Assembly: GCF_003334785.1 (NCBI RefSeq)
Contig: NZ_QOWV01000012.1
DNA length: 64,000 bases
Reading direction: 5' to 3' (one strand)
Origin: Escherichia coli
GTDB taxonomy: Bacteria; Pseudomonadota; Gammaproteobacteria; Enterobacterales; Enterobacteriaceae
Below, in pieces: positions 10,852-14,466 of the stretch. The notes under the pieces are model-generated. The model had not been told where the DNA came from. It made no database searches and was given only the letters and a program-made list of their open reading frames with translations. The translations under genes and the position numbers were made by a program. The stretch's first letter is position 1, and the number at the start of each line of letters is the position of its first letter.

Positions 10852-11471
10852 AACTCGCCCTTTGTCATAGACGTGCTGCGTATTGTTCAGATAATGAGAA
10901 TCCATTTGTATCATGAAGCACGGTTGTTTTGCGGTAGGTTAAGATCAAAATTGCGCTGATTAATCCTGGTTATCGGGACAAGCTCGGTGATAAAAAGCGA
11001 ATTATCTCTCGCCGCAAACAAACTATCACATGAATATTATCACTATAATGAATTTATTGTTTTAGCCTTTACGGGTCAGGATAATAGATAGCTGGGCGCG
11101 TTTTTTAGTGTTAACAAGTTAAAATCATCAGATTTTATTGAATAAATATTGATTGTGTGATTCCCGCATTCTGCGGGAAGGGATATCATTTAATTATAAA
11201 TTAAATGAATGTGATTTCTGTTTTTCATTAAGTATTCCTAACAACTTAATGTAGATATTTTAAATGTCTCCAGGCTATTTCACCAGGTTATCATTTGATG
11301 CTAACCTTCTGACACATGCAGTGGAGTTGTTGTGCAGCAGGAGTATGCTGATATGAAAGTGAATGCTAAGGATAATTTATTCGCTTAATCTATTAATTTG
11401 CTGGAAACATTTAAGGAATGAATATCCTGAATAAACCATCATAATTTTTAGACAGTGGATGTGGAGGAAAT

Positions 11472-12197
11472 ATGTTGCCAGGATGCTGCAAAAATGGAAT
11501 TGTTATCAGTAAAATACCTGTTATGCAAGCAGGGTTAAAAGAGGTCATGAGGACTCACTTCCCTGAATATGAAATAATATCCAGCGCCTCTGCGGAGGAC
11601 CTTACCTTATTACAATTACGTCGTTCCGGATTAGTCATTGCTGATTTAGCCGGTGAAAGTGAAGATCCACGTTCTGTTTGTGAACATTATTATTCTTTAA
11701 TCTCACAATATCGGGAAATTCACTGGGTTTTCATGGTGTCACGCTCCTGGTATTCCCAGGCAGTAGAACTGCTCATGTGCCCTACGGCGACGTTATTGTC
11801 TGATGTTGAACCCATTGAGAATCTGGTCAAGACCGTACGTTCCGGCAATACGCACGCAGAGCGTATCAGCGCCATGCTGACCTCTCCGGCAATGACTGAA
11901 ACTCATGATTTTAGCTATCGCTCCGTCATTCTCACTCTTTCAGAGCGCAAGGTACTGCGGCTATTAGGTAAAGGATGGGGCATCAACCAGATAGCTTCAT
12001 TGCTTAAGAAAAGTAATAAAACTATCAGCGCCCAAAAAAACAGTGCGATGCGTCGACTGGCAATTCACAGCAACGCTGAAATGTATGCATGGATAAATAG
12101 CGCGCAGGGTGCAAGAGAACTTAACTTGCCTTCTGTTTATGGAGATGCCGCAGAATGGAACACAGCCGAATTAAGAAGAGAAATGTCGCACTCATAG
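11472..12197 (+). CDS. yjjQ: LuxR/FixJ-family transcriptional regulator
   Basis: 241 aa with C-terminal LuxR-type HTH; preceded by a long AT-rich region. Confidence 0.85.
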
Positions 12198-12832
12198 AAA
12201 AATGCGTCATGAGTAGTATCGGTATTGAGAGTTTATTCAGAAAGTTTGCGGGCAACCCTTATAAGCTCCATACCTATACCAGTCAGGAGTCATTTCAGGA
12301 TGCCATGTCGCGGATCTCGTTTGCGGCGGTCATTTTTTCTTTTTCTGCCATGAGAAGTGAGCGCAGAGAGGGATTATCTTGCCTGACTGAACTGGCGATT
12401 AAGTTTCCGCGTACCCGGCGTTTAGTTATTGCGGATGATGATATTGAAGCTCGGCTGATTGGTTCATTGTCGCCATCACCGCTGGACGGTGTATTAAGTA
12501 AAGCGTCAACGCTGGAGATTTTTCATCAGGAACTCTTTTTGTCATTAAATGGTGTACGTCAGGCGACCGACCGACTGAACAATCAGTGGTACATTAACCA
12601 AAGCCGGACGCTAAGCCCGACGGAGAGAGAAATATTGCGCTTTATGTCGCGTGGCTACTCAATGACACAAATTGCCGAGCAGCTTAAACGCAATATCAAA
12701 ACGATCCGCGCGCATAAATTTAATGTGATGTCGAAACTGGGCGTCAGTTCTGATGCAGGATTGTTGGAGGCCGCAGATATTCTGTTATGTATGCGGCATT
12801 GCGAAGCAAGTAATGTGTTGCATCCCTATTAA
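12155..12832 (+). CDS. bglJ: LuxR-family transcriptional activator BglJ
   Basis: 225 aa, overlaps yjjQ 3' end, C-terminal LuxR HTH. Confidence 0.85.
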
Positions 12833-12869: not shown

Positions 12870-13658
12870 TCATTTCAGCGTACAATCGCCACATTGCTGC
12901 ACATCCGGTAAGCGATAACGCTGGCAGCAAGTGCGGCGCACCAGCAGGCCGTCGCGCAGTACCACGGTACGCCAGAGTGGATTATCTTCACCGTTCGTGA
13001 GCGTTTTCTCAAAAAAGATGGCATGGCGCAGCGATTCAACCGTCGCCTCGCCGAGCAGTTGCTTCATCTCAGTGAGATACCAGTTGATCAAATAACCGGT
13101 ATTACTCCAGATAAGTTTGCCGTTGATCTCTCCGGTCGCTTCTAGTGCCTGCACAACCGGAACCAGCGCCTGGCTGATTAACGTTTCCATTCGCTGCTGC
13201 GGCGAATGTGGTGTTGCGTTTTTATCGTCACACACATCGACCCAGAAACAGGCGGCACGGCCGGTTTCGTGAAACTCAGCATGGAAATGTTCCGGCGACA
13301 CATCTAATGCTTTTTCCTGCGTCAGTAGCGCCAGCATTAATGGTGGCACCATCAGGCCGATATACCATTGTGCCCATAGTGAGATCAGCGGTTTGTTCTC
13401 GCGGATCATCGTTGGTTGGTTGCGATAGATATGATCGGAATAGACCGCGAGTAGAGAACTTAGCGCATTCGGTGATGACCATTGCGCCAGCGTCATGGCG
13501 TTAAGCGGAGCGGGTTCATCCAGGCGGATAAACTCCAGCAAATGTTCACGATGTTCGGCGATCGTCGCACGTACGGCTTGTGCAAGCCCAGCATCCTGTG
13601 GCTGGAGATGCGTTCGCCAGATGATATCTTCATAGAGCGGTGCGGAACGATAGGCCAT
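12870..13658 (-). CDS. fhuF: Ferric-siderophore reductase FhuF (2Fe-2S)
   Basis: 262 aa, C-terminal C-C-x10-C-x2-C cluster motif (CCQRYRLPDVQQCGDC). Confidence 0.9.
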   Translation of the reverse strand: MAYRSAPLYEDIIWRTHLQPQDAGLAQAVRATIAEHREHLLEFIRLDEPAPLNAMTLAQWSSPNALSSLLAVYSDHIYRNQPTMIRENKPLISLWAQWYIGLMVPPLMLALLTQEKALDVSPEHFHAEFHETGRAACFWVDVCDDKNATPHSPQQRMETLISQALVPVVQALEATGEINGKLIWSNTGYLINWYLTEMKQLLGEATVESLRHAIFFEKTLTNGEDNPLWRTVVLRDGLLVRRTCCQRYRLPDVQQCGDCTLK

Positions 13659-13676
13659 AATCGTGATAGTAATCTA

Positions 13677-13695
13677 AATGATAATGATTGCTAAT
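13677..13695. promoter_or_regulatory. Fur box-like site in fhuF/yjjZ divergent promoter region
   Basis: aatgataatgattgctaat resembles the GATAATGATAATCATTATC Fur consensus. Confidence 0.5.
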
Positions 13696-13740
13696 CCTAG
13701 CGATAGGTTTACCCGATAGCAAGGGATTTCTCTGGCTTGC

Positions 13741-13785
13741 AAATGATAAAAATTATCATATGATATTGGTTATCATTATCAATGA
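13741..13785. promoter_or_regulatory. Cluster of Fur box-like sites upstream of yjjZ
   Basis: tgataaaaattatca palindrome and ttatcattatc (exact reverse complement of gataatgataa). Confidence 0.55.
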
Positions 13786-13798
13786 AAGAGATGAAACC

Positions 13799-14035
13799 AT
13801 GTTGCAACGTACGCTGGGCAGTGGCTGGGGAGTGTTGCTGCCGGGATTGCTGATTGCAGGGCTGATGTATGCGGATTTATCGCCGGATCAGTGGCGGATT
13901 GTCATTCTGATGGGATTAGTATTGACGCCGGTGATGCTGTATCACAAACAGTTACGGCATTACGTTTTGCTACCATCGTGCCTGGCGCTTATTGCTGCCA
14001 TCATGCTGATGATAATGAATTTGAATCAGGGATGA
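13799..14035 (+). CDS. yjjZ: Small inner membrane protein YjjZ (DUF1435)
   Basis: 78-aa ORF starting MLQRTLGSGWG, two predicted TM helices, divergent from fhuF. Confidence 0.75.
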   Translation: MLQRTLGSGWGVLLPGLLIAGLMYADLSPDQWRIVILMGLVLTPVMLYHKQLRHYVLLPSCLALIAAIMLMIMNLNQG

Positions 14036-14073: not shown

Positions 14074-14160
14074 TGGTGCGAGGGGGGGGACTTGAACCCC
14101 CACGTCCGTAAGGACACTAACACCTGAAGCTAGCGCGTCTACCAATTCCGCCACCTTCGC
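14074..14160 (-). tRNA. leuV: tRNA-Leu (anticodon CAG)
   Basis: Reverse complement reads GCGAAGGTGGCGGAATTGGTAGACGCGCTAGCTTCAGGTGTTAGTGTCCTTACGGACGTGGGGGTTCAAGTCCCCCCCCTCGCACCA, the E. coli tRNA-Leu1 sequence with encoded CCA. Confidence 0.9.

Positions 14161-14282: not shown

Positions 14283-14466
<184 letters not shown>

Follow-up and report, generated by a model that had tools for sequence, protein, structure and literature searches.

The fhuF promoter region of Escherichia coli K-12 is the closest described system. Chen et al. (2007) obtained DNase I footprints of Fur on both halves of the spacer that separates fhuF from yjjZ, one of high affinity and one of low affinity, and the protection by Fur was reported to extend at higher concentrations (PMC2189734). 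Deletion of fur turns on the yjjZ start site, which is silent in the wild type and strong in vitro (PMC10301672). ChIP-exo and expression data from nine E. coli strains assign yjjZ to the Fur core regulon, with expression going up on fur deletion (PMC10164565), and the gene is a core member of the Fur regulon in uropathogenic E. coli too (PMC7157518). In the iron-poor cytosol of the host, expression of a Salmonella PyjjZ-gfp reporter rises 23-fold; ferric ammonium citrate represses it 15-fold, and iron add-back restores repression just partly (PMC8432900). A Salmonella yjjZ-lacZ fusion is Fur-repressed as well, with sigma-S counteracting Fur and relieving the repression (PMC8970401). The partial repression of PyjjZ on iron add-back suggests that other metals or sigma-S also contribute (PMC8432900; PMC8970401).

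Fur repression of fhuF and yjjZ is, thus, already known from published experiments. An earlier inspection of the locus from its letters only (the sequence-only reading) had proposed that yjjZ is iron-repressed by Fur alongside fhuF, to be abandoned if expression data showed no Fur-dependent regulation of yjjZ. The footprints, the derepression on fur deletion, the core-regulon membership and the Salmonella reporter bear the proposal out, and it survives because the published expression data do show Fur dependence. Here, the locus is compared with its counterparts in other Enterobacterales.

Organization of the Locus

The window is the whole stretch of E. coli DNA that was analysed, 64 kb in length, and the features of the fhuF–yjjZ region are collected in Table 1. 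A 1401-bp query spanning the locus finds a match in 5426 of 5426 complete E. coli genomes, in which bglJ, fhuF, yjjZ and tRNA-Leu are annotated. With respect to K-12 MG1655, the window differs at four of the 140 spacer positions (13664, 13697, 13730 and 13797), and none of them falls inside a Fur box. The fhuF product matches the NCBIfam equivalog NF007932 with 478 bits (cut-off 300), and its translation carries the C-terminal CC-x10-C-x2-C motif as CCQRYRLPDVQQCGDC, which identifies it as FhuF. This motif is linked to a 2Fe-2S cluster.

Table 1. Positions of the genes, promoters, operators and rearrangement junction of the fhuF–yjjZ region in the window.
Feature	Position	Strand	Description	Basis
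fhuF CDS	12870-13658	-	262 aa	ORF, RefSeq annotation, NCBIfam NF007932
fhuF-proximal Fur operator (low-affinity footprint fhuF2)	13652-13705		best box 13679-13693, TGATAATGATTGCTA	published 4603680-4603733 (PMC2189734)
fhuF–yjjZ spacer	13659-13798		140 bp; GC 32% vs 52% in the whole window	
fhuF sigma-70 promoter	13688-13722	-	-35 TTGCTA 13722-13717, 17-nt spacer, -10 TAGGAT 13699-13694, starts 13689/13688	
yjjZ-proximal Fur operator (high-affinity footprint fhuF1)	13735-13787			published 4603763-4603815 (PMC2189734)
yjjZ sigma-70 promoter	13737-13772	+	-35 TTGCAA 13737-13742, 16-nt spacer, -10 TATGAT 13759-13764, start 13772	
Junction	13739/13740		1282 bp present in Citrobacter (GGDEF gene and its upstream region), absent in Escherichia	
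Shine-Dalgarno-like AGAGA	13787-13791	+	7 nt upstream of the yjjZ ATG	read off the sequence; AGAG kept in the alignment
yjjZ CDS	13799-14035	+	78 codons and stop	ORF, RefSeq annotation, Pfam PF07256

The surroundings of the two genes display several further features. The yjjQ and bglJ ORFs (11472-12832) overlap by 43 nt (12155-12197), an ordinary arrangement that matches the annotation and is the same in K-12. The tRNA-Leu(CAG) gene at 14074-14160 (minus strand) is present as a single copy in the window, as the array leuV-leuP-leuQ in K-12 and as two copies in other E. coli genomes; its copy number is, therefore, strain-variable. REP-type palindromic repeats occupy 14290-14460, between the tRNA gene and rsmC, and a match to the Rfam family naRNA4 (RF02564) is found at 14308-14390 (70.3 bits; gathering score 59.5).

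Fur Boxes in the Spacer

Fur sites were scored as mismatches to the 19-bp box GATAATGATAATCATTATC and to the 7-1-7 motif TGATAATNATTATCA at every position of the 64 kb. The two best matches of the window to the 19-bp box both fall in the spacer, at 13762-13780 (2 mismatches) and 13739-13757 (4 mismatches). At a limit of 3 mismatches, the 7-1-7 motif has seven matches in the window, and four of these are in the spacer: 13744-13758 (1 mismatch), 13761-13775 and 13767-13781 (2 each), and 13679-13693 (3). The sequence-only reading had counted at least three Fur-box-like sites in the 140-bp spacer, one of them with an exact copy of the core TTATCATTATC. Both statements agree with these results, since four 7-1-7 sites lie in the spacer and the exact core is located at 13770-13780, its single occurrence in the 64 kb.

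The region 13651-13805 was shuffled 5000 times with its dinucleotides preserved; three or more 7-1-7 sites at 2 mismatches or fewer never occurred (mean 0.013), nor did a 19-mer within 2 mismatches of the box. The 72 other AT-rich 155-bp stretches of the window all lacked a 7-1-7 site within 3 mismatches of the motif. Shuffles of the whole window contained on average 1.98 7-1-7 matches compared to the 7 observed, a number that none of 100 shuffles reached. The spacer thus resembles Fur-box DNA well above chance. It is hardly conceivable that the boxes are a by-product of an AT-rich spacer, owing their look to a chance likeness to promoter hexamers or H-NS-bound DNA. Such an origin would suit the GC content of 32% and the resemblance of Fur boxes to -10 hexamers, and the promoter scan also gave a minus-strand match within the cluster; but neither the 5000 composition-matched shuffles nor the 72 AT-rich stretches reproduce the sites, the operator block is nearly invariant between genera while its flanks diverge, and direct binding of Fur is documented by ChIP-exo and by the published footprints, which already refute a chance origin.

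Fur-like matches elsewhere in the window, at 10890, 23717, 47025 and 54018, are weak and were judged to be due to chance; the two that were compared with the ORFs (47025 and 54018) fall inside them. The sequence TGATAATGAATTTGA at 14010-14024 resembles a Fur half-site, with 3 mismatches to the 7-1-7 motif, and falls within the 3' end of yjjZ; it codes there for ...MIMNL..., and the likeness may be no more than a coincidence of coding.

Promoters and Operators

The coordinates of PMC2189734 were transferred to the window with an offset of 4590028, which is the same from both start codons. The yjjZ promoter was located by a promoter scan and by the published start 4,605,777 of MG1655 (PMC10301672; offset 4592005), and is conserved between genera. 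Its hexamers are separated by 16 nt as counted here, versus the 18 nt quoted in the ROSE paper (PMC10301672). The hexamers of the fhuF promoter were read off the sequence and are kept between genera, and its start sites correspond to 4603717/4603716 of PMC2189734.

Both operators lie over their promoters. The high-affinity footprint spans roughly -37 to +16 of the yjjZ promoter and holds the boxes 13744-13758, 13761-13775 and 13767-13781, the two 19-mers and the exact core, so that the boxes in 13744-13781 cover the yjjZ -10 and start site. On the fhuF side, the box 13693-13679 starts right after the -10 hexamer and covers both start sites. The layout is common to the two promoters: the -10 hexamer is followed within 1-3 nt by a box ending in ATCATTATCA. 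The yjjZ promoter has two further boxes upstream, which fits the published difference in affinity between the two sites.

Two other details of the fhuF promoter were observed. Position 13697 makes its -10 hexamer TAGGAT in the window strain and in most genera, and TATGAT in K-12, a single-base difference; the laboratory reference strain may, therefore, have a stronger fhuF promoter. Direct GATAG repeats at 13702-13706 and 13715-13719, between the -35 and -10 hexamers, are conserved between genera. Oxidised OxyR represses fhuF, according to a review, and the repeats (13702-13719) may be the site of this repression.

Gene Order in Enterobacterales

A search for relatives of YjjZ in one genome per species yielded 80 loci from Enterobacteriaceae and Erwiniaceae. 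The search was carried out with a closer set of YjjZ sequences; the 24-sequence YjjZ alignment was too diverse. Genes fhuF and yjjZ directly adjoin each other only in Escherichia (five species, 140 bp apart), strain LSJC7 (166 bp), Tenebrionibacter (186 bp) and Shimwellia (181 bp). The distance between them is about 1400-1870 bp in the remaining loci with fhuF found. The intervening gene, present in 71 of the 80 loci, Erwinia included, encodes a membrane GGDEF diguanylate cyclase of 354-365 aa, and is oriented on the fhuF strand, divergently from yjjZ. The spacer between the cyclase gene and yjjZ measures 244-377 bp (244-308 bp in all but one locus).

The intervening protein matches the diguanylate cyclase model TIGR00254 with an E-value of 4e-47, and its GGEEF motif contains E267 in a 354-aa protein. 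Salmonella STM4551 has been described with the motif 'GGE267EF' (PMC3229569). From this positional match to the published description, we infer that the intervening cyclase is the orthologue of STM4551.

A gapped alignment with the Citrobacter sedlakii locus (L007) defines the point at which the two arrangements part. Window positions 13621-13739 align to 1041-1159 of L007 with 82% identity, and positions 13740-13838 to 2442-2540 with 89% identity. The segment with the cyclase gene occupies 1160-2441 of L007; the corresponding segment of another locus, L058, occupies 1186-2250. Because the cyclase gene is found in both families and is absent only from scattered lineages, its loss in Escherichia is the simplest reading. 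The 1282-bp difference would thus reflect a loss in Escherichia and not a gain elsewhere, and the adjacency of fhuF and yjjZ appears to be a derived state.

Conservation of the Two Operators

The alignment of the yjjZ-side regions reveals a block, TTATCATATGATATTGGTTATCATTATCA, that is nearly invariant in 22 genera and is bordered by flanks that cannot be aligned. The core is exact in 55 of the 80 loci and has at most one mismatch in 77, and is located mostly at -29 from the ATG. In Erwiniaceae it mostly lies 76-83 nt upstream of the Met equivalent to that of the E. coli start, and in Erwinia aphidicola 44 nt upstream of it. On the other side, the block TAGGATT(G/A)GCAATCATTATCATTTAGATTA is kept beside fhuF in 15 genera and in most of the 80 loci, and the fhuF upstream block CTTGCTATCG...TAGGATTGGCAATCATTATCATTTAGATTA is maintained in 15 genera irrespective of the sequence beyond it. 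When 2 mismatches are allowed, 7-1-7 matches are confined to these two operators in nearly all of the 80 loci. The Fur sites are, therefore, conserved in the orthologous promoters. Since yjjZ shows saturation of its synonymous sites in comparisons between genera (dS about 1) and its operator is near-invariant, the operator is under direct selection.

Each operator is conserved on its own, and in 71 of the 80 species more than 1.2 kb lies between the two. The yjjZ-side operator remains beside yjjZ even at loci where 1.4 kb separates this gene from fhuF, which indicates that the 'high-affinity fhuF site' is the operator of yjjZ. Compared across genera in this manner, the E. coli spacer reads as a fusion of two self-sufficient Fur-repressed promoters. 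A divergent promoter, as the sequence-only reading had described it, exists in the sense that two promoters stand back to back; it does not hold as a single unit, given the distance that separates the two promoter-operator modules in those 71 species.

It is unlikely that the region 13735-13787 is instead one shared operator, a master site for both genes from which Fur spreads or loops to the weak fhuF site, so that repression of fhuF in E. coli would hinge on the boxes beside yjjZ. The two footprints are just 29 bp apart (13706-13734), and the extension of Fur protection at higher concentrations (PMC2189734) is compatible with spreading. In addition, the fhuF box carries 3 mismatches in E. 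coli and 2 in most other genera, which could mean a relaxed need beside a strong cluster. Nonetheless, a shared operator does not account for the maintenance of both sites in species where the cyclase gene separates them, each over its own -10 hexamer and start, and the fhuF box by itself covers the fhuF start site. Two separate operators are thus preferred. In E. coli, where the strong cluster is positioned 50-97 nt upstream of the fhuF start, some cross-talk from the yjjZ-side cluster to fhuF may occur.

The YjjZ Protein

YjjZ matches the Pfam family PF07256 (DUF1435) over its full length (E-value of 2e-35, residues 1-75 on positions 1-75 of the 75-position model). Among 1.84 billion proteins, this small family has 54 representatives at 50% identity. 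It displays the conserved motifs SGWG, QWR and ML(Y/F)HxxLRH(Y/F)xLLPSC, and the conserved residues of YjjZ include H49, R53, H54 and C61. NCBIfam has no family for YjjZ, and no chain in the PDB matches the DUF1435 profile at E-values up to 1. YjjZ had been taken in the sequence-only reading for a two-helix membrane protein. The hydropathy profile shows three peaks, the AlphaFold (AF2) model (pLDDT 71.5) has helices at residues 10-24, 29-48 and 57-77, and the Salmonella protein is listed as '3TM' (PMC5437024); three helices are, therefore, predicted, in a topology that would place the N-terminus inside and the C-terminus outside.

Erwiniaceae homologues (Erwinia, Pantoea and Winslowiella; L074-L081, at about 2415-2500) carry an extra hydrophobic N-terminal stretch of 17-25 aa that is possibly a fourth helix. 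Many public gene calls for YjjZ, of 91, 98 or 133 aa, are probably too long: they start within the Fur operator, upstream of the mapped start site, and their reading frame is not conserved over the extension. The start of the 91-aa call, at 13760 (extension 13760-13798), was rejected because it precedes the mapped start at 13772. In Buttiauxella, Dryocola, Cedecea and LSJC7, length differences of 1 nt disrupt its frame, and none of the three codon positions of the extension varies, as is typical of an operator and unlike coding sequence.

Pairwise comparisons between genera give dN/dS values of 0.06-0.28 for yjjZ at a dS of about 1. Within genera, five of six pairs have values of 0.09-0.35, and one pair, with few substitutions, has 1.14. 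These ratios show, at the level of codon substitutions, a protein-coding gene under purifying selection. That yjjZ is a Fur-regulated small RNA and not a protein gene is, consequently, very improbable. The gene has been termed a potential small RNA (PMC5311112; PMC6131188), and the Salmonella protein escaped detection both by LC-MS and with a 3xFLAG tag, although a translational lacZ fusion was expressed in the same study (PMC5437024). The fusion speaks against a noncoding transcript, as do the full-length DUF1435 match, the conserved Shine-Dalgarno-like sequence and ATG, and the low dN/dS in the face of synonymous divergence near 1. An Rfam search of the spacer and yjjZ matched no family and, together with dN/dS, led us to reject the small-RNA interpretation in favour of a protein gene.

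Possible Functions of YjjZ

No iron phenotype for yjjZ is on record in the literature. A Salmonella yjjZ deletion behaves as the wild type in a cytosolic proliferation assay, the one infection assay tried, and knock-down or knockout in E. coli has inconsistent effects on solvent and antibiotic tolerance (PMC6131188; PMC5311112). The sequence-only reading had suggested a role in iron uptake, an argument that rested on the adjacency to fhuF. As this adjacency appears to be derived, it lends little support to such a role, and the Salmonella deletion has no defect in that one assay. The conserved Fur control nevertheless points to some function of YjjZ during iron starvation.

Our best guess is that YjjZ could be a membrane-embedded accessory protein or a small carrier that works with a partner. 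The neighbouring diguanylate cyclase was considered as a target, with YjjZ as its modulator. Escherichia lacks the cyclase gene and yet keeps yjjZ mostly under purifying selection, so that modulation of the cyclase would at most not be the only role of YjjZ. In structure searches, SemiSWEET and MPC carriers rank at the top, with non-significant scores and a moderate-confidence model as the query. Pfam yields DUF1435 only, and neither sequence nor profile relates YjjZ to the MtN3, PQ-loop or MPC families. It is a long shot that YjjZ is a SemiSWEET/MPC-like triple-helix-bundle protomer that would pair into a small transporter made only in iron starvation. If this were true, YjjZ would represent an unrecognised iron-regulated transporter family, found in Enterobacterales only and ancestrally encoded back to back with a membrane diguanylate cyclase.

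Discussion

The arrangement that very probably applies to this locus consists of two back-to-back sigma-70 promoters, each under its own Fur operator placed over the -10 hexamer and the start site. When iron is plentiful, Fe2+-Fur would occupy both operators and keep RNA polymerase off, presumably by promoter occlusion. Under these conditions yjjZ would be tightly shut by its high-affinity three-box cluster (13739-13781), and fhuF less tightly, as the low-affinity site would comprise one weaker box (13679-13693) and degenerate flanking repeats. When iron is scarce, both promoters would fire, giving rise to the ferric-siderophore reductase FhuF and to YjjZ, a 78-aa inner-membrane protein with three predicted helices that presumably acts in the membrane during iron starvation. 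In evolutionary terms, the modules would be independent units; they are parted by the membrane diguanylate cyclase gene in most Enterobacterales, and its loss in Escherichia would have joined them.

The regulatory claim in itself is of little weight, as it is already contained in the literature and databases. The fusion of two modules through loss of the diguanylate cyclase gene is a small addition, which was not found stated in the literature surveyed. Identification of the 'high-affinity fhuF site' as the yjjZ operator cautions against inferring function from the adjacency of fhuF and yjjZ, and may help explain the weak repression of fhuF. The operator of yjjZ is among the most conserved non-coding blocks of the locus from Erwinia to Escherichia, and this conservation suggests that the three-helix YjjZ is a real and ancient member of the response to iron starvation.

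MntS and MgtS are small membrane proteins of metal-stress regulons. YjjZ is similar to them in having fewer than 100 aa and in being made only when a specific metal is limiting, under a dedicated metalloregulator. Unlike them, it has three predicted helices and a Pfam family of its own, DUF1435.

The gene pairs fepA-fes, fepB-entC and fepD-entS of the enterobactin cluster are functionally linked genes of one pathway. Their spacers are, like that of fhuF and yjjZ, short and AT-rich, with back-to-back promoters under footprinted clusters of Fur boxes (PMC2189734). By contrast, the fhuF–yjjZ pairing occurs in Escherichia and in a few further lineages, apparently as a result of gene loss. The locus is the same as the fhuF promoter region described in E. 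coli K-12 (PMC2189734; EcoCyc/RegulonDB via PMC10301672), whose footprints and start sites map directly onto the window. Both footprints were assigned there to the 'fhuF promoter' (PMC2189734); by comparison between genera, the high-affinity footprint corresponds here to the operator of yjjZ.
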